The position numbers were made by a program, and so were the translations under genes. This document shows, in pieces, positions 2,990-42,727 of a stretch of 64,000 bases of DNA. Under the pieces are notes generated by a model. The model had not been told where the DNA came from, did no database searches, and saw only the letters and a list, made by a program, of their open reading frames with translations. This DNA comes from Escherichia phage nithesis. The first letter of the stretch is position 1, and every line of letters begins with the position of its first letter. The DNA lies in sequence record PV252060.1; one strand, 5' to 3'.

Positions 2990-5900
2990 ACGCACATACC
3001 CCCTTTGATGCAAAACAGGATTGGACCAATCCATACTGCCAGAACAGTTCCAATGACCCAATGGTAGATGCACTACTTGGTAATGCTTACCATGTGGTTC
3101 GAACTGTGTACTGCAATCTTGGTAACCTCAAACTTCTGTATGATTTCCTGAACCAGTATGGAATGGTACTTGGTGTACAGTCTGAGGCAGAACTTAAGGC
3201 TCTAACCACTGAAGCTAAGTATGCCCGTATCTACGGTTTCTCCCGTGCAGGTGACCGTCAGATAACTGACTACCTTTATGTGGAAGGTGACCGTACCGGT
3301 ATCATTCCAGATGACCCAAAGGCAACTGGTTCATGGATTACCGTTGCTACTTCTGGTTCCAATGATAGTGGTACTTCCTCCGGTGAAGGTGCTTATATTC
3401 CATGGGTATATGCAAACGGTTCTGCTACTGGTGGTGAAACTACAATCAACGTACCAGATGGTACGGTGGGTGTACCTTTTATTATTGTTAATGGCGACAT
3501 GCAGTATGTAGGTCGTGGTTTTGAGTTTAATATTGACAGCCTGTCTGTAACTCTGGCTCAACCTCTGGAAGAGGGTGATGAAGTAGTATTCCTGCTGACT
3601 GGGGTTCCTGCTGTGCCAGATAACCCTAACGTTAGTGATTGGGTTCAGATCAACTGGTTATATAACAATGGTGCTGCTGTAGGTGGCGAGCAGGTTATTG
3701 CTATTCCTTATACCTTCCAGTCTGTTCCTGCTGTGTATAAGAATGGGCTTCGTTTATATAAAGGATTAACCACTGAGTCTTATACTGCTGACCCCGATAA
3801 CCAACGTATACTTCTTACTGAGTCACTGGCAACCGATGACCGGTTGATTGTACAGCTTGGTGGCGAGTCATGGGTATTTGAAGCATCAGACAGTACACTT
3901 CAAGAAGTGGCTCGTGCAGCTAACGTAAAAGACTCTGAAGTAATCCTTAGTACGGACACCACTCAGGTACTTAATGGTAAGAAGGTAATTTATGATGTAG
4001 TTTCCCAACGTATATACTGGTTACCTACCCTACCTACCAATGTTTATATCATCTCTGTCTCAGACGGACAGCTAACATATTCTCCTGGAAATATTACTGT
4101 TACTCTGCTGGATTCCTACCAGCAGCAGAATGCCAGAGAACTATGGCGACGTAACCTTGCTGAGGCCGGTTTAACTCTTGTCGATGGTAGCTTTGAAGAA
4201 GGTGTCACGGCGAACAGTGCAACTGATGCTGTTTGGCATATCGCTGGTGGGCAGTGTTACACGTGGGGTGGCGAATTTCCTAAAACTGTAGTACCTGGCT
4301 CAACTCCAGCAACAACTGGTGGGATTAGTGATGATGCATGGTTAAGTGTTGGTGATGTAAGTTTAAGAAGTGACCTGGCTGATGATGACGGAGTTGATTT
4401 AGTTAACGGAGCAGTCAAGGATAAAGATTTTGAGCTTTACAAAAGGCAATCAATTGCAAAAAATAGATTTAATTTCGCTTTTGGGAATAAATACTCAAGA
4501 AGCTTTAATAATAATTTGCGCTTACAGTTGCAAACTTATGTAGAGAATGTATTTAACTTTGCACCAAAAGCGGTGTCACTTCCGAGTGGGCGGGTGGTAT
4601 GTATCTACACAGTGAAGGATGGTGCTAATATTGACCCAGGACAGGACGGCACACCTATGCACATTGATTACCTAATATCTGATGATAACGGTGTGAACTG
4701 GACCACTGGAACTGTTGTTAACAAAGGACCAGGATATGCCACTTCTGAAACGGTACTATTCCTAAATAATCTTGATGGATATTTGTATTGTTTCTTTACA
4801 TCAATGAAGGGGATTACTGGGTGGGGACATGCACAACAAGGAACTAACCCTGACACAACATCAACTATTGAATATGTCATATCAAAAGATGGTGGCAATA
4901 CATGGAGCACCCCTGTTGATATTACGCCATTGGTTAAACCATCTGGTGCTTACTTCTCATCAATTGCACCTACACAAGTCGGGTACATAAATGGCAAGCC
5001 TGCAATTCCTTATTATTATTTAACTCAACTATCTACAGGAATAGTTGAGGGGTATATCACAGTTGATGATAGCGGTAACTACACCTACGGTGAAGATGTC
5101 AGGAAAGACACCGATGTCGATACGCTAGGAACTTCTGGCGGCGAGATTGGATTTGGCAATTTCTATGATGGAACACCTTTTGCAATTGAGCGTGCTGCCG
5201 ACACAACAATCAAACCGTATAAAATCGCAATACAAAAGCTATTAATGCAAGATTCTAGTGGAAAGTGGGTTGTAAAAGGACAGTTCCCTACCACTAACTG
5301 TATGGCGTCGTTCTTACGCGTTGGCCCTGATTATGGTTTTGATAAGGATTATCTCTTTGTTATCGCACCTGTTGGTCAATCAGGTAATTATGAAGGACGT
5401 GCAAACATTAGAGTATTCGACTGCTCTGACGATTTTAGCAATCCTATTGATCGCGGCATGATAACAGACACAAATGCTTTGGAGGCAGGTTACAGTTCAA
5501 CCGTGCTTCTATCTTCTGGTTCATTTATGAGTATGTGGAACGGTAGACAGTGGACGATTAGCAATTCAATTTACACTATTAACAGGCTTGCGGGCAACGC
5601 AATTATCCCTGTCCCGTTTTGTGGCACTATTAAAATTGTTGACATTAGAAAGACTTTTGCACCCGATTTAAGAACCAACGAGCGAGTGATTGGTCTTGCT
5701 GACGGCAAAGAATATACATGGAACGGTTCATCATTTGTGCTTGGTATTTCGTCACCAACGAAAACGCTAACAACTGAAACAACTACATTAGATGCCAACT
5801 CTTGCGACGTATTTTATCTCGACGCTGGAAGTAATGGGTCAGTGATAACGTCAATCACTGGTGGATATATCGGACAAAGGATATCAATACTTCCGTTATC

Positions 5901-6072
5901 CGGCAGCACTGTTGTGACGCTTTCAAGACAAGCGTCCGGCGTCTCTGTCACCGACAGAATTATGTATAATACAGAAACCGGGAAGACAAAATACAACACA
6001 AACGGGGAGATTGTAGAGTTAATAAAAACGAACTACGGATGGTATTTAAACAAATCAGCAAATGCATCATAA
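2980..6072 (+). CDS. tail fibre/tailspike with BNR/Asp-box (sialidase-like) C-terminal domain
   Basis: 1030 aa; two Asp-box motifs S-x-D-x-G-x-T/N-W (ISDDNGVNWTTG near nt 4675-4710; ISKDGGNTWSTP near nt 4880-4915); Gly/Ser/Thr-rich N-terminal half typical of fibres; hairpin terminator follows. Confidence 0.6.
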   Translation: MAMNAHTPFDAKQDWTNPYCQNSSNDPMVDALLGNAYHVVRTVYCNLGNLKLLYDFLNQYGMVLGVQSEAELKALTTEAKYARIYGFSRAGDRQITDYLYVEGDRTGIIPDDPKATGSWITVATSGSNDSGTSSGEGAYIPWVYANGSATGGETTINVPDGTVGVPFIIVNGDMQYVGRGFEFNIDSLSVTLAQPLEEGDEVVFLLTGVPAVPDNPNVSDWVQINWLYNNGAAVGGEQVIAIPYTFQSVPAVYKNGLRLYKGLTTESYTADPDNQRILLTESLATDDRLIVQLGGESWVFEASDSTLQEVARAANVKDSEVILSTDTTQVLNGKKVIYDVVSQRIYWLPTLPTNVYIISVSDGQLTYSPGNITVTLLDSYQQQNARELWRRNLAEAGLTLVDGSFEEGVTANSATDAVWHIAGGQCYTWGGEFPKTVVPGSTPATTGGISDDAWLSVGDVSLRSDLADDDGVDLVNGAVKDKDFELYKRQSIAKNRFNFAFGNKYSRSFNNNLRLQLQTYVENVFNFAPKAVSLPSGRVVCIYTVKDGANIDPGQDGTPMHIDYLISDDNGVNWTTGTVVNKGPGYATSETVLFLNNLDGYLYCFFTSMKGITGWGHAQQGTNPDTTSTIEYVISKDGGNTWSTPVDITPLVKPSGAYFSSIAPTQVGYINGKPAIPYYYLTQLSTGIVEGYITVDDSGNYTYGEDVRKDTDVDTLGTSGGEIGFGNFYDGTPFAIERAADTTIKPYKIAIQKLLMQDSSGKWVVKGQFPTTNCMASFLRVGPDYGFDKDYLFVIAPVGQSGNYEGRANIRVFDCSDDFSNPIDRGMITDTNALEAGYSSTVLLSSGSFMSMWNGRQWTISNSIYTINRLAGNAIIPVPFCGTIKIVDIRKTFAPDLRTNERVIGLADGKEYTWNGSSFVLGISSPTKTLTTETTTLDANSCDVFYLDAGSNGSVITSITGGYIGQRISILPLSGSTVVTLSRQASGVSVTDRIMYNTETGKTKYNTNGEIVELIKTNYGWYLNKSANAS

Positions 6073-6077
6073 CAACA

Positions 6078-6100
6078 AACCCCGCTTAGGCGGGGTTTTC
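6078..6100 (+). terminator. intrinsic terminator after tailspike 1
   Basis: CCCCGC-TTAG-GCGGGG hairpin followed by TTTTC. Confidence 0.6.
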
Positions 6101-6121
6101 TAGAAAAACAATGAGGTTTAC

Positions 6122-33541: not shown

Positions 33542-33570
33542 AAAGCCCCTCTAATGAGGGGCTTTACTTT
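33542..33570. terminator. bidirectional terminator at convergence of late (+) and middle (-) transcription
   Basis: AAAGCCCCTC-TAAT-GAGGGGCTTT perfect 10-bp hairpin between + gene ending 33536 and - gene ending 33569. Confidence 0.65.
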
Positions 33571-33775
33571 AGAATCGAGAAATTCTCAATTCAAGTACAC
33601 GGGCATATGCAGACATAGTATCTAATTGCGTGCGTAGTAATGCCTGGTCAAACTGGTCCAGTTTGGTAAATGTTTCATTTGTATTGATAAACACTGATAG
33701 ATCATGAATTTTTTGATTCAGTGAACCCAATTCATCTAATACACGAAGTTGATGTGCTGCAAAAGATTTAGTCAT
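33569..33775 (-). CDS. small hypothetical protein
   Basis: ORF-track ORF; start probably at internal Met; overlaps next gene. Confidence 0.3.
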   Translation of the reverse strand: MTKSFAAHQLRVLDELGSLNQKIHDLSVFINTNETFTKLDQFDQALLRTQLDTMSAYARVLELRISRF

Positions 33776-34001
33776 GTGTCCCCCACATTTTAGGCTTACG
33801 CCCTTCACTTGGAAATTTACCAGTCTCTTTAATCTTCCGTAGTGTTTCCTCTGATGGGAACCACAGGAATGTGAAGTAAAGTTTCTTAGCTACGTAACGA
33901 GTTACGCCCAGTTTCTCTGCGATTTCATCAAATGAATATGTACGAACGGTATTGTTGAGAATGGCTTCACGAACAACAGAGGTAATAGATACTTGTGTCA
34001 T
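33768..34001 (-). CDS. small putative DNA-binding (helix-turn-helix-like) protein
   Basis: 77 aa; segment FDEIAEKLGVTRYVAKKLY resembles an HTH motif. Confidence 0.35.
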   Translation of the reverse strand: MTQVSITSVVREAILNNTVRTYSFDEIAEKLGVTRYVAKKLYFTFLWFPSEETLRKIKETGKFPSEGRKPKMWGTHD

Positions 34002-34124: not shown

Positions 34125-34505
34125 TCAGATTGTACAACCACCACCGTCACAGGTGTTGTTTTCTGCAAATGAAGCCAGAGCCTTAGCAGTCTCTTCTTTC
34201 TCGTGCAGTGCCTGACGTAGCAGGTAACCTTCTAATTCCCAAATCTTATTGAATGCATTTTCATATGCATACTGACGACCCTTCTGTTCATCATAGATAG
34301 CAGGGTCTACGCAAGCAGATACACCTTCAATTTTGAATCCATTTTCCAGGATGATAATGCAATGGGTTGTCAGACCCAGATTAGCCAAATCATCTGCTGG
34401 AAGTGCAGAAGGATCAACGAATGCAGACTTCACTGCGTCAGCACCATTGAAAAAGTAAATGCTCTTAATCTTAGCTTCGATTGCTTCTTTACTTACTGTT
34501 GCCAT
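34125..34505 (-). CDS. conserved phage protein (N4 gp49-like family, tentative)
   Basis: About 126 aa; recalled similarity in character to the Phage_gp49_66 family and matching position; start moved to internal ATG with AGG upstream. Confidence 0.35.
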   Translation of the reverse strand: MATVSKEAIEAKIKSIYFFNGADAVKSAFVDPSALPADDLANLGLTTHCIIILENGFKIEGVSACVDPAIYDEQKGRQYAYENAFNKIWELEGYLLRQALHEKEETAKALASFAENNTCDGGGCTI

Positions 34506-34565
34506 TATTAACCTCATAGAGTGGTTTGAATTTGTACTTAAACATGATTGTGCTTATTAATACTC

Positions 34566-34595: not shown

Positions 34596-34717
34596 AGTAG
34601 CTTTAACTTAGCTAACGAGGCTAGGTCTCTTAGTATATATTAGTAGAGTGCCGGACTGTCTCACCGGCATTGTCTTTAGAGTGCAATGCAATCAGGACTA
34701 TGTTCTCTATTAAAAAG

Positions 34718-34791
34718 TACCCACTACTGGATTTGAACCAGTGACCTTCCGATTATTAGTCGGTTGCTTTCCCCGTCTAAGCTAAGTGGGC
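34718..34791 (-). tRNA. tRNA gene, anticodon uncertain (apparent AAU with mismatched anticodon stem)
   Basis: Minus-strand cloverleaf: acceptor GCCCACT/AGTGGGT, D-arm GCTT..AAGC, T-arm ACTGG-TTCAAAT-CCAGT; anticodon arm ACCGA-CUAAUAA-UCGGA has an A-A mismatch; no encoded CCA. Confidence 0.55.
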
Positions 34792-34796
34792 ATAAA

Positions 34797-34872
34797 TGGT
34801 TACCCGGACAGGATTCGAACCTGCGTCCTAGTTGGTTTACTAGTGGGGCTTTACCACTAAGCCTACCGGGTA
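34797..34872 (-). tRNA. tRNA-like gene with non-canonical 6-nt (or 8-nt) anticodon loop
   Basis: Acceptor TACCCGG/CCGGGTA, D-arm GGCT..AGCC, T-arm GCAGG-TTCGAAT-CCTGT, encoded CCA; the only good anticodon stem (CTAGT/ACTAG) leaves a 6-nt loop AAACCA. Confidence 0.5.
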
Positions 34873-35507: not shown

Positions 35508-36507
35508 ATTAATTGCCAGGGATTCCACCTGGCTCCATCTGTTTTTATAGTCACTCAGATATCGTCTGGACTTGTTGTGGTGGCCGGTACTGATCTCCGA
35601 CATAAGGCGCTTATTCGGCGGCGTCGAGCTTGCTTATTCGCTTGAGCCATCCTCGTGAGTCAGCCACGTCCCACTGCGCATCAGCCTGCGCATTCACCAC
35701 AACGGAAAGAGCACTTAACAGAAGATAGGTCTGATTGCCTCGGATGATTTCTCAGTAGCCTAAATGCTCTTACCTGTTGTGTGCCCATTATTAATCACAG
35801 CGGGCCACTGCGCCGAATTTGCTTACAAGGAGTCGGAAGACCTTGCTGACTTACAGGCTATTACGCCGCCATCAGAATAACATCATCGTTTGCATTTATG
35901 TTATTGGTTCGTTTCTAAAAAAACCGCATAATCGCTACGAAAACTATCGGGGAGTGCACTGAGGGTTAGCTAGACCTCCACAAACTGGGATATCCCTATG
36001 TTTGGTTAGATGGGCTTACCTGTATTAGCGCACTAACACAGTCTTAATCACCACTCTCGCACGATACAATGCACTCTCCGATAGTTCATAATAGGAGGGA
36101 GGAGACGAATCCCCCCTTTATACCCTATATTGCATGTAAGATCTAACAGTTCGATGTTGTAGACGGATAGGCTTATACTTACCGGCATTAAACTCCCGCC
36201 CCCTTAGTGGGCTGGGTTAATTAGTATGCTCAACATGAGCGGTTAGTTGATAAGGTATCTGAAGCCTTATCCAAAAGATACTAACCTTTGGGATATAGCC
36301 TAAGATTCAGAAATGGCCCCTATAGGAGAGGCCATTGATTAACCCTAATGTTGCTTTACATTTTCTGAGATAACCCATTCTTAAAATAGTCTGTCTGACG
36401 GATGGGGGGCCACCCCTAGCGTCAGTGCCATACGGCAAAGATTAAGTTAAGAAAGGTTATGATAGGAGTTCCTATCTCAAAGGATTCTAACAGAACCCTT
36501 CACGATA

Positions 36508-36678
36508 TTAACTACTCTTTTTTAATGCTTCTACTTCACCCTCTTTATACCAAGCATATGGTACTAAGATTTTGCAGCCTTCTGATTCAATGTGAAATGC
36601 TTTCTTTCCTTCAACAGGTTCTCCACCCATGAAAGAACTAACCTTTCCATTGAGCCAGTGAATAGTAAATTTGTTCAT
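36508..36678 (-). CDS. small hypothetical protein
   Basis: 56-aa version of the ORF-track ORF starting at an internal ATG preceded by GAGG. Confidence 0.3.
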   Translation of the reverse strand: MNKFTIHWLNGKVSSFMGGEPVEGKKAFHIESEGCKILVPYAWYKEGEVEALKKSS

Positions 36679-36909
36679 ATTAGCCTCAGTTGAACCAATG
36701 CACAGGGGAGAGTATTCCTGCACACTGGTTCTGTTGTTGTTACTCTGGCGGCTTGTCACCACCGTGTTTACCACTGCATTTCCACAGGATAATGACAGTG
36801 ATGATAAAAGCTATGTATGGAGCCGACACGTCTATAATCCTGACCAGTAGTAGCATCAGGACTATAAACACTACCACACCTAGCAGCAGCTTCTGAGCCA
36901 CCTACCAGA

Positions 36910-37389
36910 TTAACTACGTTTAAGGCCAGCGAACAGTGAAGGCTTAGTAGCAGGTTTCTCTGCTGGTTCTTCAGCCTTAGTCTCTTCCTGCACAACTTCT
37001 TCTTGTGCTTCTGGTTCAGCTACTGCTTCTTCTTCAGGTTCCGGCGTAGAACTCTCGTTCTGACCACCAACTGAGGTCGGGGCATCTACTTTCGGTCCCA
37101 GAGGTGCTCCCTCCTTTACAGATTCGGTAACAACTTGCTCACCAACCTCAGGTTCTGGAGTTGAGTCAACAGGACGATGTTTGGCTTCTTGTGGATTCTT
37201 ACGAGAACGACGAGTTTTTTTCTCTACTCCCACGGGTGGAGTATCTTCGTGAACCTCTTCGTTGATACCAACGGAGGCTGTGCCATCTGCATTGATGACA
37301 ATACTAATGTCACCAGCAAGATTGATTTGATCATCGACATATGCCTGTACAGCAGCTTCTACTTCGGACTGGTTCAAAATGATTTGCAT
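36910..37389 (-). CDS. acidic, Pro/Glu-rich low-complexity protein of unknown function
   Basis: 159 aa; folded-looking N-terminal 45 aa then long acidic repetitive region (PEPEVGEQ, EPEEEAVAEPEAQEEVVQEETKAEEPAEKP). Confidence 0.4.
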   Translation of the reverse strand: MQIILNQSEVEAAVQAYVDDQINLAGDISIVINADGTASVGINEEVHEDTPPVGVEKKTRRSRKNPQEAKHRPVDSTPEPEVGEQVVTESVKEGAPLGPKVDAPTSVGGQNESSTPEPEEEAVAEPEAQEEVVQEETKAEEPAEKPATKPSLFAGLKRS

Positions 37390-37390
37390 A

Positions 37391-37945
37391 TTACGCCTTT
37401 ATTAATTTAATGAGGTTCTGGAAAGCTGGGAGATTTACACCAGCATGGATTGCACCGATTGCATCTGCTAAGTGCTCATTCTTATTCAGAAGTTTGCCTT
37501 TCTTATCAGTGAGCCAGTTGGCTTCAGGATAAATGGCATGAGCAGCACGAATCATCGTGTCCTTAGATGCTGTTTTATCACCGACCAGTGCAAGTTTGTT
37601 TTCAATTGGGGATACTTCAAAGATTGGACAACCCAATGCACGAAATGCACCAATTAATCCTACGCATACTCCATAGGATTTCATACCGTTAGCAGACTGA
37701 GAGCCTACTGGTACTTCTACGAATACTGCTTTAGCAGATCGTAACCATTCCTCACAACCAAGAAACAAATCGTGAGCGGCTTGTATATCTTTGGAGTTGG
37801 TTCGAACTTGTTTGTTGTGGTCAACTTCAGTTTGAACCAGTTTAAGTTCGACCTGCTCGAAAACGCCGGACTCAATGTCCAGCATCCCACGAGCTAAACC
37901 CCAATTGCGGAGACTAATGTCTGCACCGACAATTGGGATTTTCAT
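37391..37945 (-). CDS. RuvC-like Holliday junction resolvase (tentative)
   Basis: 184 aa; N-terminal IVGADISLRNWGLA, later FVEVPVG and HLADAIGAIHAG, consistent with RNase H-fold resolvase acidic residues. Confidence 0.45.
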   Translation of the reverse strand: MKIPIVGADISLRNWGLARGMLDIESGVFEQVELKLVQTEVDHNKQVRTNSKDIQAAHDLFLGCEEWLRSAKAVFVEVPVGSQSANGMKSYGVCVGLIGAFRALGCPIFEVSPIENKLALVGDKTASKDTMIRAAHAIYPEANWLTDKKGKLLNKNEHLADAIGAIHAGVNLPAFQNLIKLIKA

Positions 37946-38748
37946 TAACGTTTACCGAACAGTGATTTACCACCAGCAGGAGTAGTACCCGTGCCAGCAC
38001 CTGCACCTGGTTTAGGAGGCAAGCCACCTTTACCATTACCACCAGCAGAACTCTTAGTTTTGTCACGAGTTTTGCCTTTGTTCTTTTCCAGCCATGCTGC
38101 ATAGAATACAGCCAGTTCTGGGGTCAGTTCTTTCTCAGCCTTCTCTGCTTCCTGAGCCTCGACGACTGTGACCAGCAGTTCCGGGTGAAACACCTTCTGA
38201 ATCTCATTTACTTCACGAGTTTCACCGGAGTCAACGTAACCGTTGTCACCTTTAACCTGCTTGGATTCCAGAACTTTTTCCAGAGCGAAGGTAACAGTCT
38301 GACCTACCAGGTCAACTGGAACCATGACAGACTTATTAACTTCTGCTTTAGCATCGAAGTCATAGACTTTGACAATCTTCTCTTCGAAATCAGCTTCAGG
38401 CAGTTCAGTACCGGTAGCCATCAGCATCATGTCGTTAATGACGGTATAGCCAGGCAAGAAGTATTCTTTACCGTTCTTCTCGTAAGTCGGTTTATTACCT
38501 TTAGCATTACCAGAAGTGAAGTACACCTGAGCACGGAACTCACCGGCAGGTACGCCATCAGAGTTTTTCAGGTCTTCAACGATTAACTGCATCCAGTCTG
38601 CACCAGAGTCAGCTTTACCTACGTAAGCTACTTTTACAGTACCAGTGTAGATATCGGATTCTTTTGCACCGAAGCCACCACCACCCAGGGAGTCTTTTAC
38701 AGCTTCAACGTTTTTGGTTTTTTCTTTCAGATTACTGAACAATGACAT
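37945..38748 (-). CDS. single-stranded DNA-binding protein (N4 gp45-like)
   Basis: 267 aa with Gly-rich flexible C-terminal tail; size and position at the end of the replication block match the N4 SSB arrangement. Confidence 0.5.
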   Translation of the reverse strand: MSLFSNLKEKTKNVEAVKDSLGGGGFGAKESDIYTGTVKVAYVGKADSGADWMQLIVEDLKNSDGVPAGEFRAQVYFTSGNAKGNKPTYEKNGKEYFLPGYTVINDMMLMATGTELPEADFEEKIVKVYDFDAKAEVNKSVMVPVDLVGQTVTFALEKVLESKQVKGDNGYVDSGETREVNEIQKVFHPELLVTVVEAQEAEKAEKELTPELAVFYAAWLEKNKGKTRDKTKSSAGGNGKGGLPPKPGAGAGTGTTPAGGKSLFGKR

Positions 38749-38787
38749 ATGATTTTCCTAATAAGTGATTAACAACCAGGCAAACGC

Positions 38788-39540
38788 TTAAGCGTAATAT
38801 TCAGCCAGATGGTCTAAGAGTTTCTGGGCATCATTATCAATGTAAGTCTCGGACTTATCGAACATACCCATTGGGGAACGAAGTCGTTTACCAACAGACT
38901 TCTTGGTTGGACGGGTCTGGAATACGTGCTTATACCCTAAGTCACGTTCTTCTTCCGTAATTTCTAACATCTTGTTCCCATACTTCTCCAGTTCTTTGAT
39001 GTCTACACGTTCTGCGTAAACCACTGTAGAGAAGTAGGCTTCAAGCCCGTTATTCTTAAGAGAGCCTTTCACTGGGATGAACGTTTTCATCACACCGGCA
39101 GCTTCATCAAGTTCGTCTTTAGCATGAGCAGTAATAATTACTGGCTTACCAAACTTAACGACTTTTTGTTGCAGCAGTATCTTAAAGAACTGTGCAAAAT
39201 CTCCCCATGCTTTCTGCGTGTTTGCAGATGGCAGAACATACTGGGATTCCAGCATATCCATCATGAAGGTTGCTGAGTCAATGATGATGCCATCAACATC
39301 GTCTGCCATTTCTCCACCAGGAGATGCAACATCAAATGCTTCCCAGATTTGATAAGGGTCTTCAATGTTGTAGGTATTGAACTTATTACGGAAAGGCAGA
39401 CGTTTACCTGCTTCAGTATTCAGATAGAGCCAGCGTTCCTGGTTCCTGATGTTACGTAGTGATGCTGATTTACCACTTGCTGAGAAACCTGCAATCAGGA
39501 TTAGCTGAGTGTTCATATCATTGGGAATTACTTCGGACAT
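38788..39540 (-). CDS. P-loop ATPase (Sak4/RecA-like, N4 gp44-like)
   Basis: 250 aa; Walker A GFSASGKS near N-terminus, Walker B-like hydrophobic stretch ending in D (GIIIDSA). Confidence 0.5.
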   Translation of the reverse strand: MSEVIPNDMNTQLILIAGFSASGKSASLRNIRNQERWLYLNTEAGKRLPFRNKFNTYNIEDPYQIWEAFDVASPGGEMADDVDGIIIDSATFMMDMLESQYVLPSANTQKAWGDFAQFFKILLQQKVVKFGKPVIITAHAKDELDEAAGVMKTFIPVKGSLKNNGLEAYFSTVVYAERVDIKELEKYGNKMLEITEEERDLGYKHVFQTRPTKKSVGKRLRSPMGMFDKSETYIDNDAQKLLDHLAEYYA

Positions 39541-39596: not shown

Positions 39597-41750
39597 TTAC
39601 TTGCCAGCGAAGCGTTTAGCCACGGTGACCATTACGGTTGCATTCAATTCATCATCTGGTAATGGATTAGCCAGCTTCTTATTGAATGAGTGGACGGCTT
39701 GCTGTACTTGGGCAAAATCCCAACCACTGTCAACCAATGCCAGTGCGTACTTAATCATTTGATTATTACGATTACCGGTAGCAATACGACTAGCGAACCA
39801 ACGCTCCAGATTATCCAACGACTGTACTTCCTTCATCTGGTTCTGGAACTGCTCGTTCTTACTAGTACGAGGAATAAAGTCACGCACGTCCAACAGATTT
39901 GCTTCAAGATTGTAATGATAGGAACCAGTCTCACAGGACATCCATTTCTTGGCTCGCTGGTTAGCAGATTCATCCGTTTCGAACGGTAGCCAAGACATAA
40001 CGTTATTCATGAACTCTTTGTACTCCTCGGTATCGAGGTGTAACTCATAGTTCATTGGAATAATCAATCGGAATCGGTTCTCTTCATCGGAATGACGCTT
40101 AGTGGTATAGGTCATGAACTTATATTCCTTCATTAGTTCATGGCACGTATGCAGTGGTACTCCACCATCACAGTCAATAACAATCATGTTAAATCCTGGA
40201 ATAACGTTCTCTTCAGAACGATGCCCATTCTTCATGTGATGGTTTACCCAGTGCATACCTGGAGCTTGGGTTAATACATGCAACTGATCGAACGGTACAC
40301 GCTCACCAATGTAGTCATAAGCAAAGCTATCACTATATGCCACTATCATCTCATTGATGTCAGTCTCTTTCAGAGTCTCACCACGGAAGAACTCAATACC
40401 TTCATTGAAGGTTTTCTTAATGATGATGTGCTGTTTGTAGCCCCATGCTGTAGCAAGAGTCATCATCTCATTACGGGCTGCATTGCCACTCTTATAGAAA
40501 GGCAATGACTCCAGTAAGTCAGCATGTGTCACTTCTTTACCTACAGAGGCAATGTACTTAGCCAGCTTCACATAGGCTTTCTCACGATTGAGAATACCCT
40601 GGAATGCTGCCCCGGATTCCTCTACAAGCAGAATTGCTTGTTTGAGGTGAGACATCTCAATGAATGAACTCTGGTCAATAAACGCCAGTGCTCCAGCCAG
40701 TTTAAGTGCTTTGAAGTAACGGTGGGAGATTTCAGCTTTACGAATTTCTTCGTGGTCAGCCATAGCTTCTGCTTGTTTCTCACAATCAATCTTGTAAGTA
40801 ATCAGAGCAATTCCCACAGCATCTTCCACAACCATCTTAAAGCCGAACAAGTTTGGATCAGCCAGACTATGGAAGTGGTTAGCCCATTTGCCAAGAGACT
40901 GTACGTTATCCTGCTTAATCAGGTTACGGTAGATTTCTTCTGGAGACATTGTTGCATGTGCTCGTTTGTCTAAATGCCCAATAGCAAACAGACAACGACG
41001 TGCATACCCTGTATCAAGGAAGTCATAGAACTGGTCTTCGGTCTGACCACCATCTAATAGCTTACTTGGTGTACCAAATAGCAACAGGTTAGCTGGAGTT
41101 TTACCATCCAGTTCTTCACCACGAACACTTTCAGCAGTGTTCTTGGTTAGCTTCTGCTTAACCTTACCCTGGTCATATAACTCCAGGAACAGGGTTAATA
41201 CATCAGTGTTAGCCAACAGGTTTGAACCAATCTCATCAATCTGAAGGTTGATTGAACCACACCCAGCCATTAACAGTTTATGTCGTAGCTGTTTAACTGC
41301 TGGTGGAGTACCAGAGTCAAACGTAAACGGATATGCTCCAGCACGTTTATATTCTGCTTCAACTTTATCAAACTCATCATTCTGGTCTGTACCTTGTCGA
41401 GCAGCACGTTCGTTAGCAATCTTCCATAAACGGTCATTTGCAATGACGGGCATGGTGTCTTCCATAAAGCGTTTACGGAAGCCAGTCATGAACCCGTCTT
41501 CAATAATATTTACCGAGTGACCTTTACCGAAGCCAGACGTTGCTAATGCCATAGCGTAAATGTTGACTGGTAAGTCACCACGGTCTTTAGTGACAATGGT
41601 TGCACCCATGCAGGATGCCATTTTAGCCAGGAAGTAGGCTACTTCGACACGGAAGAATCCTCTGTCGTTGTTTTGTGTCTTGTTACACAGCACGTCTACA
41701 ATTTCTTCAATTGCAGGGTGGTGAGTGACTCCGGTCAGGTCAATACTCAT
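39597..41750 (-). CDS. putative DNA primase (N4 gp43-like)
   Basis: About 717 aa; position between nuclease and ATPase genes matches N4-like replication module order; glycine-rich loop TSGFGKGHS; start moved to internal Met to abut upstream gene. Confidence 0.45.
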   Translation of the reverse strand: MSIDLTGVTHHPAIEEIVDVLCNKTQNNDRGFFRVEVAYFLAKMASCMGATIVTKDRGDLPVNIYAMALATSGFGKGHSVNIIEDGFMTGFRKRFMEDTMPVIANDRLWKIANERAARQGTDQNDEFDKVEAEYKRAGAYPFTFDSGTPPAVKQLRHKLLMAGCGSINLQIDEIGSNLLANTDVLTLFLELYDQGKVKQKLTKNTAESVRGEELDGKTPANLLLFGTPSKLLDGGQTEDQFYDFLDTGYARRCLFAIGHLDKRAHATMSPEEIYRNLIKQDNVQSLGKWANHFHSLADPNLFGFKMVVEDAVGIALITYKIDCEKQAEAMADHEEIRKAEISHRYFKALKLAGALAFIDQSSFIEMSHLKQAILLVEESGAAFQGILNREKAYVKLAKYIASVGKEVTHADLLESLPFYKSGNAARNEMMTLATAWGYKQHIIIKKTFNEGIEFFRGETLKETDINEMIVAYSDSFAYDYIGERVPFDQLHVLTQAPGMHWVNHHMKNGHRSEENVIPGFNMIVIDCDGGVPLHTCHELMKEYKFMTYTTKRHSDEENRFRLIIPMNYELHLDTEEYKEFMNNVMSWLPFETDESANQRAKKWMSCETGSYHYNLEANLLDVRDFIPRTSKNEQFQNQMKEVQSLDNLERWFASRIATGNRNNQMIKYALALVDSGWDFAQVQQAVHSFNKKLANPLPDDELNATVMVTVAKRFAGK

Positions 41751-42727
41751 GATGGAAAATATCTCTCTCTTTGTTTGCAAATGGACGCGACAGGGCAGTA
41801 TAGACAACGCTTAACCTGCCCCTCCACGACCTTGATAGCACCCTTGCCACCTTTTTCAGCCATGAAGATACGAGCAGATGCCATATCGTCAAAGTTTTTG
41901 GTACTTCTGGCTCCAGGTACATCTACCTTAGAAGCATCAGAGAAGTATTTGAACTGTGGCTCTGTTCGCCACAACTCTTCATCAGTACATTCAGGAATTT
42001 CCTCTTCAGGAGCATTCCAGTACTTCTCAATAAGGTGAATCTTCTCTTCTACCCAACGTTCAGTCTTCTCGACAGATAGCAACGGAATATCCTTATGCAT
42101 AATACGATTAGCAGGATAGTTCGGATTGCTATTAGCCATATGCTTCATGAAGTCAGTGAAGATGTAGTTAATACGAATTACATCCTCGGTAATGATGTCG
42201 TTGTGAATCCAACGGTACAAGCTGCCTTGCATCTTGTGTTCATCATCACGGGAACCAGCAACCCAGGAATAGGTTGAGGTAGACTTAAAGTCCTGCAACA
42301 GACCTTCTGTTACGATGTCGAACTTACCACCAATAGTCCAACCCTTAACTACCCTGGTTCCACGCTGTTCAATGTAGATTGGGATAAGGTCAGGGTTAGC
42401 ATCAAAGTCTGCTTTGGTTGGGTTAATGACTACTGCATCAATTACTCGCTGAGGATAACCCAGTTTCTTCAATGCAGTTTTATGACCCAGCTTCCAGGCT
42501 TTCTCAATAGAATCATGTAAACCAGTACCCATTGATGTGGAGACGAAATCCATAACATCAATTGACTGGTCACTAAGATCTACACGATGTTTCATGACGA
42601 TTTGCTTAATAGGCTTAAGCAATGTAGTAACAGACAAATACTTAGGATTGTCTACGTAATCATACTCGTCATGTAATAGCCATACAGCCAGGGCCAGTGA
42701 GACATCATGGTTGTTGGTTATCTTCAT
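41747..42727 (-). CDS. PD-(D/E)XK-family exonuclease with C-terminal Cys cluster (Cas4/RecB-like)
   Basis: 326 aa; C-terminal CTDEEL...CLYCPVASIC cysteine cluster typical of Fe-S-containing RecB/Cas4-type nucleases; in replication module. Confidence 0.45.
   Translation of the reverse strand: MKITNNHDVSLALAVWLLHDEYDYVDNPKYLSVTTLLKPIKQIVMKHRVDLSDQSIDVMDFVSTSMGTGLHDSIEKAWKLGHKTALKKLGYPQRVIDAVVINPTKADFDANPDLIPIYIEQRGTRVVKGWTIGGKFDIVTEGLLQDFKSTSTYSWVAGSRDDEHKMQGSLYRWIHNDIITEDVIRINYIFTDFMKHMANSNPNYPANRIMHKDIPLLSVEKTERWVEEKIHLIEKYWNAPEEEIPECTDEELWRTEPQFKYFSDASKVDVPGARSTKNFDDMASARIFMAEKGGKGAIKVVEGQVKRCLYCPVASICKQRERYFPS

Follow-up and report, generated by a model that had tools for sequence, protein, structure and literature searches.

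The minus-strand open reading frame (ORF) for 159 aa that follows the Holliday-junction resolvase gene of Escherichia phage nithesis was analysed in a window of 64,000 nucleotides (the whole stretch of DNA studied; sequence record PV252060.1). The phage is N4-like, of the genus Gamaleyavirus (Schitoviridae), and the region is 93–95% identical to phages PD205, PE007, ECBP1 and Bp4. By profile comparison and synteny, the ORF was shown to be the orthologue of N4 gp47 and of gp61 (Bes2) of the N4-like Pseudomonas phage Ab09. Its product, which ends in an S-L-F peptide that is also borne by the SSB (the protein binding single-stranded DNA) of the same phage, is best explained as an adaptor of modular build and neither as an enzyme nor as a folded mimic; on balance we favour an adaptor that is associated with the resolvase and docks at the site of the SSB peptides.

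Orthology with N4 gp47 and Ab09 Bes2

The profile phrog_7641 covered the whole ORF product (hmmscan, expectation value E 3.5e-61) and phrog_18842 matched it as well (E 3e-13), 602 homologues were retrieved from a set of 5.8 billion proteins, and tblastn found matches in 68 phage records, where the gene, if annotated, was nearly always called hypothetical. These matches indicated that the gene is real, and conservation of the family ruled out a chance ORF or an antisense artefact. The G7C and ort11 records annotate their own copies as similar to N4 gp47. When the gp47 alignment was compared with Bes2 by hhalign, a probability of 95.1% was obtained (E 3.3e-8), and of 94.6% with the Bes2 family (E 6.5e-8); BLASTP of the ORF product against Bes2 gave only about 29% pairwise identity (E 0.014). 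The gp47 of Erwinia phage Pastis bridged the two, matching both the gp47 PHROGs and the phrog_7564 of Bes2, and the gp47/Bes2 family is taken here as phrog_7641, phrog_18842 and phrog_7564. Gene order is kept too, as both Bes2 and the ORF lie 3' of the SSB gene and directly after a RuvC-like gene, which is Bes1 (gp60) in Ab09 and whose product in nithesis is 41% identical to Bes1 (E 7e-47). The assignment as a Bes2 orthologue therefore rests on profile comparison, synteny and the Pastis bridge between the PHROG families. The equation of N4 gp47 with Bes2 was not found in the literature searched.

Bes2 has 145 aa and an isoelectric point (pI) of 4.5, starts MKIELQQAEVAAGIATYL… and ends …GGSLFS (the ends given here for Ab09 and other phages run to the stop codon). 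It resembles the 159-aa ORF product in size, in acidity, in the homologous N-domain, in being predicted mostly disordered and in the SLF end, which each phage also has on its own SSB (…KPASLFS in Ab09). The two tips differ in that Bes2 ends one residue past the Phe, whereas the ORF product goes on (…SLFAGLKRS). N4 gp47 is a positional orthologue and a sequence homologue of the ORF product, and the N4-type sequence aligns through the N-domain, while the linker sequence is unrelated. In the N4 reference genome (NC_008720, about 6040–6113), the gp47 gene has a 1-nt deletion in an A-run (GAAGAAG-AAAAG), and the annotated protein ends …KPNLLCLQV with the tip missing. The end …EEAKEPVQAKPSLFAGLKR is encoded by other N4 isolates (PMBT57, OLB145), which finish in …AKPSLFAGLKR, and by the reference itself in its +2 frame; the reference frameshift stems either from an error in sequencing or from a mutation by which a laboratory strain lost the tip.

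Bes1 and Bes2 were reported to allow Ab09 to evade Thoeris I/II and CBASS II-A; neither binds nor cleaves the signal molecules, and Bes1 alone or Bes2 alone rescues an Ab09 deletion mutant (10.64898/2026.06.04.730250). The same authors identified the trigger of Thoeris II in Ab09/Lit1 as a late protein, the side tail fibre, and suggested that Bes1 and Bes2 may aid phage development and not be inhibitors as such (10.64898/2026.06.04.730250). The evasion of these three systems is a phenotype demonstrated for the Pseudomonas protein only.

Architecture and conservation of the product

Four parts were distinguished by composition and structure prediction: the folded N-domain is followed by a basic patch, then by a linker that is acidic and disordered, and last by a C-terminal peptide that is conserved. 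The protein has a calculated pI of 4.40 and a net charge of −18 at pH 7, with 26 Glu, 7 Asp and 15 Pro. Residues 1–45 are hydrophobic/acidic and lack Lys and Arg, residues 46–75 (KKTRRSRKNPQEAKHRP) are net basic, and residues 76–159 hold 20 D/E against 7 K/R as well as 11 Pro; the stretch beyond the basic patch is acidic and rich in Pro, Glu, Val and Ala, and the very end is basic-hydrophobic (KPSLFAGLKRS). No tandem repeats were found in the acidic stretch by TRF. In an AlphaFold2 model based on a 20-sequence alignment, order was confined to residues 1–44, with block means of the predicted local distance difference test (pLDDT) of 63–85, a helix at residues 7–21 and two strands (28–32 and 38–42) that form a beta-hairpin. 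Residues 46–144 mostly scored below 50, and the C-terminal tip climbed to 57–67. The first-pass annotation, made from the letters of the window, had described a short N-terminal domain with about 100 residues of acidic, disordered sequence after it, and had proposed computing the pI and predicting the structure; both predictions of composition and fold agree with that description. The annotated coordinates proved exact for an ORF running from ATG to stop on the minus strand; the annotation had named no strand. Its placement of the ORF beside replication/recombination genes was likewise correct, as genes for the RuvC-like resolvase, SSB, a Sak4-like annealase and primase adjoin it.

In a family alignment spanning 24–90% identity, only the N-domain and the C-terminal tip were conserved, and the approximately 100 residues between them could not be aligned. 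The invariant or near-invariant residues of the N-domain are M1, Q2, I3, L5, Q7, E9, E11, A13, N23, I30, D35, G36 and A38, and the pattern MQ[IV]xLxQxE[IV]E… was consistent in the 20-sequence alignment, which includes Bes2 and RusA fusions. In the tip, L152, F153 and L156 are invariant and S151 nearly so. Column entropies over the 120 closest homologues were 0.11 bits for the N-domain, 0.06 for the basic patch and 0.08 for the tip, against 0.44 for the linker. The common allele among these 120 has 146 aa; that of nithesis, with 159 aa owing to an insertion of 13 aa in the linker, occurred 12 times. LIT1 gp66, a Bes2 homologue, has 126 aa with two linker deletions compared with the 145 aa of Ab09; the length of the linker varies inside Litunavirus just as inside Gamaleyavirus. 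The composition of the linker was retained, its net charge being negative in 19/19 homologues measured (−5 to −23), as was the homologues' pI (4.1–4.8); these are 19 of the 20 aligned sequences, P0137 having been skipped. K/R clusters akin to the basic patch are present in KP8, Moo19, N4, Vibrio phi 1 and Ab09. Since the head, the patch, the tip and the composition of the linker are conserved and the sequence of the linker is not, selection acts on the former and not on the linker sequence, which by sequence comparison is the signature of a tethered docking motif and not of a folded mimic.

Pfam held no match to the ORF product at E <= 1 and NCBIfam gave noise only, a sequence-profile search of the PDB with the protein and with the family returned nothing informative, and the best Foldseek match of the AlphaFold2 model in the PDB had an E of 1.1. 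Against BFVD, Foldseek returned only family members and RusA fusions, including a roseophage 'RusA'. A single-sequence phmmer search of 1.84 billion representatives found 15 clusters only, and no new architectures among them. The idea of a virion or scaffold protein was rejected, because the searches gave no sign of a structural role and the locus lies amid genes for replication, a group that belongs to the middle genes in N4 (review PMC4496689).

An S-L-F peptide common to gp47 and SSB

The gp47 tip follows the motif [RK][RKP]-S-L-F-[AG]-[GN]-L-x-[KR], and an extended consensus continues with -P-x-N. Among the real genes of nithesis, S[LIM]F within the last 14 aa was found only in SSB (…GGKSLFGKR) and in the gp47 ORF (…KPSLFAGLKRS). 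Both proteins ended with S[LIM]F in 17/17 isolate phages, which represent about 12 genera and infect Escherichia, Shigella, Klebsiella, Erwinia, Pseudomonas, Vibrio, Rhizobium and Sinorhizobium. The respective ends of SSB and gp47 are, for example, KKSLFGKK and KPSLFANLKR in KP8, AQPRKSLFGNKG and AQPRRSLFGGLSKPTND in phiEaP8, PKSMFG and GKSIFG in Pastis, SSLFN and KSLFG in Vibrio phi 1, and PASLFS and GGSLFS in Ab09. The survey was extended to 80 further IMG/VR loci that were retrieved via the Sak4 gene and scored with purpose-built hidden Markov models. An [LIM]F near the C-terminus was present in 65/65 distinct SSBs and 63/63 distinct gp47 modules, compared with 7.5% of 640 other ORFs, the windows being the last 24 aa for the modules and the last 20 aa for the other ORFs.

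SSB carries a second copy at its N-terminus (consensus M-S-x-L-F-G-N-L-[KT]), detected in 59/65 SSBs vs. 2.8% of other ORFs; a variable spacer of about 10 aa lies between it and the conserved core. The consensus of the gp47 tip resembles the SSB C-terminal tip ahead of the Phe and the SSB N-terminal peptide beyond it, and the SSB N-terminus of locus L029 has the very heptapeptide, SLFANLK, that stands in the gp47 tips of KP8 and Moo19. This three-fold use of the peptide (SSB N-end, SSB C-end and gp47 C-end) was not found in the literature searched.

The number of residues after the Phe co-varied between SSB and gp47 (Spearman 0.57, p 0.017), and in Pastis, Vibrio phi 1 and Ab09 a single residue follows the Phe in both proteins. 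Tail length showed no host pattern, as Ab09 differs from ZC03 and Pastis from phiEaP8. Neighbour-joining trees of Sak4 and of the SSB core, by which a single clade of short-tip phages was tested, had branches too deep for this purpose, and a single-sequence model of SSB reached a pLDDT of 34, useless for docking the terminal peptides on the core.

In phage HK620, binding of Sak4 to SSB-coated single-stranded DNA requires the last 6 residues of SSB (PMC5928155), and the C-terminal residues of N4 SSB are essential for late activation, N4SSB contacting the beta' subunit of RNA polymerase (PMC4496689). Peptides of this kind are thus docking sites, from which we infer that the gp47 tip is a docking peptide.

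Linkage of the gp47 module to two resolvase families

In 67/68 surveyed loci, the gp47 module lay directly 3' of a Holliday-junction resolvase or was fused to it, namely 46 with a RuvC-like protein and a separate module, 17 with a fused RusA, and 4 with RusA and a separate module. The distance from the resolvase stop to the module start was −4 to +9 nt in 34/49 loci, and the same order, resolvase after SSB and then the module, was seen in the 17 isolate phages. In nithesis, the ATG of the ORF is 1 nt past the stop of the RuvC-like gene, with a Shine-Dalgarno-like AAAGGCG 5 nt ahead of it inside the 3' end of that gene, so that by its spacing and ribosome-binding sequence the ORF is plausibly translationally coupled to the resolvase gene. 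A promoter/terminator scan of 36000–39000 gave nothing above shuffles, and thus no evidence of a separate transcription unit.

RusA-gp47 fusions, the usual arrangement in many Schitoviridae, were confirmed in RHph_I1_6, ort11, ZC03, Vibrio phi 1 and the distant homologue P0137, while Erwinia phage Pastis has two overlapping genes, one for RusA and one for the module. The C-terminal portion of about 135 aa of the fusions (phrog_33948, phrog_14238, phrog_21721; ZC03 gp13, Vibrio phi 1 gp071, ort11 gp064) is the module, and it has the N-domain, the acidic linker and the S[LI]F tip as the ORF product does, but it is covalently attached to the RusA nuclease, whereas in nithesis it is a separate polypeptide behind a RuvC-like nuclease. 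All four fusion genes checked on DNA (L034 2501–3301, L035 2489–3304, L037 2495–3337 and L038 2477–3274) keep the ATG of the module in frame, with GAGGA, AGGGAG or AAGGA 7–10 nt upstream. Retention of the ATG behind a Shine-Dalgarno-like sequence suggests internal initiation, by which the free module may also be made from these genes. That one and the same module has stayed attached to resolvases of two unrelated folds speaks for a functional partnership, and neither the fusion nor the linkage with two resolvase families was found in the literature searched.

In three environmental loci (L048–L050), an ORF of 290–298 aa (4981..5853/5877) was observed in which the gp47 N-domain begins at residue 128. 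Its N-terminal part matched neither the RusA nor the RuvC profile, and could be another fusion partner or a mis-called start.

A possible tail swap in an Ab09 deletion mutant

The viable mutant Ab09 delta gp57-61 was described as carrying a deletion that removes the 3' end of the SSB gene (10.64898/2026.06.04.730250). In the 7-kb Ab09 locus (HG962375), CCGGCAG occurs only twice, starting at 41,096 and 42,899. The two copies are exactly the published deletion boundaries, both stand in codon phase 0, and the distance between them is 1,803 nt (3 x 601). Loss of the DNA from one copy to the other should fuse SSB(1–246) in frame to Bes2(129–145), giving a product with the end …GRPAPAAKQAAPASTGGSLFS, whose last residues are APASTGGSLFS; the predicted junction reads …GGTCGTCCTGCA-CCGGCAG-CCAAACAAG…. 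If this is true, the SSB of the viable mutant kept an S-L-F tip taken from Bes2, an accidental swap that would suggest interchangeable tips. Such a reading of the mutant was not found in the literature searched.

Neighbouring genes and other observations

The minus-strand order around the ORF is primase, Sak4-like annealase, SSB, RuvC-like resolvase, gp47 ORF and a 53-aa membrane protein, and the Sak4-like annealase gene is the first of a conserved Sak4-SSB-resolvase-gp47 block (Table 1).

Table 1. Positions of the ORF, its parts and the neighbouring genes in the window
Feature	Position	Strand	Remarks
ORF under study, 159 aa plus stop	36910..37389	minus	N4 gp47 / Ab09 gp61 (Bes2) orthologue
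N-terminal domain, aa 1–45 (MQIILNQSEVEAAVQAYV…)	37255..37389	minus	sole predicted folded part; conserved family-wide
Basic patch, aa 56–73 (EKKTRRSRKNPQEAKHRP)	37171..37224	minus	net positive inside acidic protein
Acidic Pro/Glu-rich disordered linker, aa 74–146	36952..37170	minus	pLDDT mostly <50, hypervariable
C-terminal tip, aa 147–159 (KPATKPSLFAGLKRS)	36913..36951	minus	conserved short linear motif
RuvC-like Holliday-junction resolvase (N4 gp46 / Bes1 orthologue)	37391..37945	minus	phrog_159 E 3.5e-42
SSB (N4 gp45 family)	37945..38748	minus	phrog_743 E 8e-89; same peptide at both ends
SSB C-terminal tip, GKSLFGKR	37948..37971	minus	[LIM]F in 65/65 SSBs
SSB N-terminal peptide, MSLFSNLKE	38722..38748	minus	motif in 59/65 SSBs
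Sak4-like annealase (N4 gp44)	38788..39540	minus	phrog_124 E 1e-49; Pfam AAA_24
Primase	39597..41807	minus	
Virion RNA polymerase, 3,590 aa	22764..33536		

Directly after gp47 (36740..36901, minus strand), a hydrophobic protein of 53 aa is encoded (MAQKLLLGVVVFIVLMLLLVRIIDVSAPYIAFIITVIILWKCSGKHGGDKPPE, phrog_19025), with two probable transmembrane segments. A comparable small membrane ORF stands 3' of the module in Gamaleya-, Moo-, Kaypocta- and Enquatrovirus, and also in certain more distant loci (L027, L031, L032, ort11 and Vibrio phi 1).

The stretch from SSB to the virion RNA polymerase corresponds to the 'anti-signalling hotspot' of the Ab09 preprint (10.64898/2026.06.04.730250). It includes a 130-aa ORF on the minus strand (34125..34517; Pfam PF13876, Phage_gp49_66). 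Its product shares 43% identity over 60 aa with the Acb4 domain of Ab09 gp59 (E 2e-17) and is a likely cyclic-nucleotide sponge (anti-CBASS). A 79-aa ORF (33569..33808) was considered as the counterpart of Ab09 gp59, an Acb4-Sequestin fusion, and was rejected, as BLASTP gave no alignment. Between 34520 and 36500, about 2 kb were without convincing ORFs and contained two tRNA genes, one for tRNA-Ile (34717..34791) and an odd one with an ambiguous anticodon (34797..34872); at 35812..35948, matches resembling tRNA or transfer-messenger RNA stayed below threshold. Related phages have 4–6 tRNAs there, and part of the stretch may be decayed tRNA genes.

Proposed role and alternative explanations

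In the reading that we consider somewhat better supported than its alternatives taken together, the gp47 tip would plug into whichever site receives the SSB peptides, and gp47 would work together with the Holliday-junction resolvase encoded just upstream, a partnership suggested by the tight gene linkage, the RusA-gp47 fusions and the matching phenotypes of Bes1 and Bes2. The receptor would most likely be phage-encoded, since the format of the tip tracks the SSB of the phage and not the host, and it would belong to the SSB-centred replication/recombination machinery, with the SSB core, the Sak4-like annealase and the DNA polymerase as candidates; for the SSB core, the N-terminal cooperativity arm of gp32 provides an analogy. 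Docking would place the module, and hence junction resolution, at SSB-coated DNA, and the acidic disordered tether would be selected for its composition and not for its sequence. On this view, Bes2 would bring about evasion of Thoeris and CBASS through this role in phage DNA metabolism and development, and not by sequestering signals or mimicking DNA. It is the action of the tip as a docking peptide, its target and the connection to immunity that we infer in this scheme. A wider form of it, in which a peptide-docking network (core S-L-F-G-N-L-K, used three times) joins SSB filaments, the resolvase and possibly host RNA polymerase, and gp47/Bes2 plugs into that network, is put forward only tentatively.

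If the target were instead host RNA polymerase, gp47 would be a late-transcription modulator that tunes the timing or level of the late (structural) genes, and fewer or later late-protein triggers, such as the tail fibre, would explain the evasion of Thoeris and CBASS. Such a role would accord with the late-activation function of the N4SSB C-terminus and its contact with beta' (PMC4496689), the same core peptide being present on gp47, with a late protein as the Thoeris II trigger, with the failure of Bes2 to bind signalling molecules, and with retention of the peptide in phages whether they infect alpha- or gamma-proteobacteria, which a conserved target in the host would lead one to expect. 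The tip format, however, is not uniform among phages that share a host but co-varies with the SSB of the phage itself, which points to a phage-encoded receptor; moreover, the RusA fusion and the tight RuvC coupling would be left unexplained, and Bes1, a nuclease fold, gives the same phenotype, so that we hold this explanation to be unlikely. A host sliding-clamp binder was also considered, with S-L-F as a beta-clamp motif of the QL[SD]LF type that tethers SSB and the resolvase module to DnaN. An [LM]-F core at the C-terminus after a disordered linker does resemble clamp-binding motifs, among them the RB69 polymerase tail KKASLFDMFDF, the hydrophobic pair near the terminus is present as L-F or I-F in 63/63 modules and 65/65 SSBs, and no clamp is known to be encoded by N4-like phages themselves. 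The Gln that defines position 1 of the clamp motif is nevertheless essentially absent in both proteins (position −4 from the Phe: A15, R13, K10, P7 and G6 in the module; R39, K10, T9, G4 and V2 in SSB), the flanks are basic, a copy at the SSB N-terminus is atypical of clamp ligands, and the tip format is independent of the host; clamp binding is thus very improbable.

The first-pass annotation had raised the possibility of a DNA mimic that inhibits restriction or other DNA-binding defence proteins, and more generally the acidic disordered region might act as a nucleic-acid decoy that directly blocks restriction enzymes, ThsB/ThsA, CD-NTases and the like. The strong acidity of the 19 homologues measured, the location in the anti-defence hotspot of the preprint with an Acb4-like gene nearby, and the finding that Bes2 expressed alone counteracts three systems would fit such an inhibitor. 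The known mimics Ocr (T7 gp0.3) and ArdA are likewise small and very acidic. Both fold into rigid dimers that look like B-DNA, are the first proteins to be expressed and present rigid charge arrays, whereas the acidic part of the ORF product is predicted to be disordered, is hypervariable and indel-rich, varies in sequence and length even among near-identical phages, and belongs to a gene that sits among replication genes. The product has no sequence or fold similarity to Ocr, ArdA or other known mimics, nor to any solved or viral predicted structure outside its own family. In addition, nearly all Schitoviridae have the gene, and it keeps its synteny with core replication genes in phages whose hosts differ widely, which is atypical of accessory anti-defence genes, the module is fused to resolvases, and one protein acting directly on three mechanistically unrelated systems is unlikely, an inhibitor role being doubted by the preprint authors as well. 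Direct inhibition is accordingly a decidedly doubtful explanation, and the ORF is an ordinary member of a conserved family, not a new class of anti-restriction DNA mimic. What stands of the earlier proposal is an anti-defence role, supported indirectly by the orthology with Bes2; the route would differ from DNA mimicry, and the reported Bes2 phenotype concerns nucleotide-signalling systems, not restriction. Homology to a structural or replication accessory protein had been named as evidence against that proposal, and a tie of this kind was found in part, in that the RusA fusions and the terminal peptide shared with SSB connect the protein to replication/recombination accessory functions.

Several observations weigh against the adaptor reading itself. 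The RuvC-like and RusA-like folds are unrelated, and it is not evident how the N-domain could make one kind of direct contact with both; rescue by Bes1 alone and by Bes2 alone means that neither strictly requires the other, at any rate under over-expression. The residues flanking the motif did not co-vary significantly in identity between SSB and gp47 (permutation p = 0.066), and the N-terminal 'motif' of SSB could simply be part of the SSB fold. The N4 frameshift removes the gp47 tip and, if real, would make the tip dispensable in the laboratory, and the in-frame tail swap of Ab09 was deduced from quoted coordinates, not from the junction sequence. In phage essentiality-screen preprints, no data on N4-like phages were found.

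The docking arrangement proposed for gp47 has partial counterparts in other systems. SSB tails (DDDIPF of E. coli SSB, T7 gp2.5, NDYPPF of HK620 SSB) likewise present a conserved Phe peptide at the end of a disordered linker, but their flanks are acidic and the Phe is terminal, whereas the N4-type peptide has K/R/P flanks and 1–10 residues after the Phe, and, unlike the SSB tails, has an extra copy at the SSB N-terminus and is borne by a non-SSB protein, gp47. In phage T4, gp33, gp55 and the DNA polymerase gp43 have common C-terminal tips that bind the sliding clamp; docking on this one hub, gp45, they couple replication to late transcription, and gp33 is small and acidic. The likeness is that several proteins of one phage bear one short hydrophobic C-terminal peptide; gp47 has no sequence homology to gp33, gp55 or gp43.

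The long-unassigned N4 gp47 is thus Bes2, evolutionarily locked to resolvases of two unrelated folds and sometimes part of one polypeptide with them, and besides its 45-aa head the only conserved elements are the basic patch and the terminal peptide shared with SSB. Should the docking network be true, it would constitute a replication-recombination-late-transcription machine and would explain the 'novel mode' by which Bes1/Bes2 blunt CBASS and Thoeris, e.g., through faster or re-timed DNA processing and late-gene expression. N4-like Pseudomonas phages, which Bes1/Bes2 are reported to guard from three signalling immune systems, are used therapeutically, and the gp47/Bes2 equation, the shared peptide, the resolvase link and the tail-swap reading together make the mechanism of Bes1/Bes2 directly testable.

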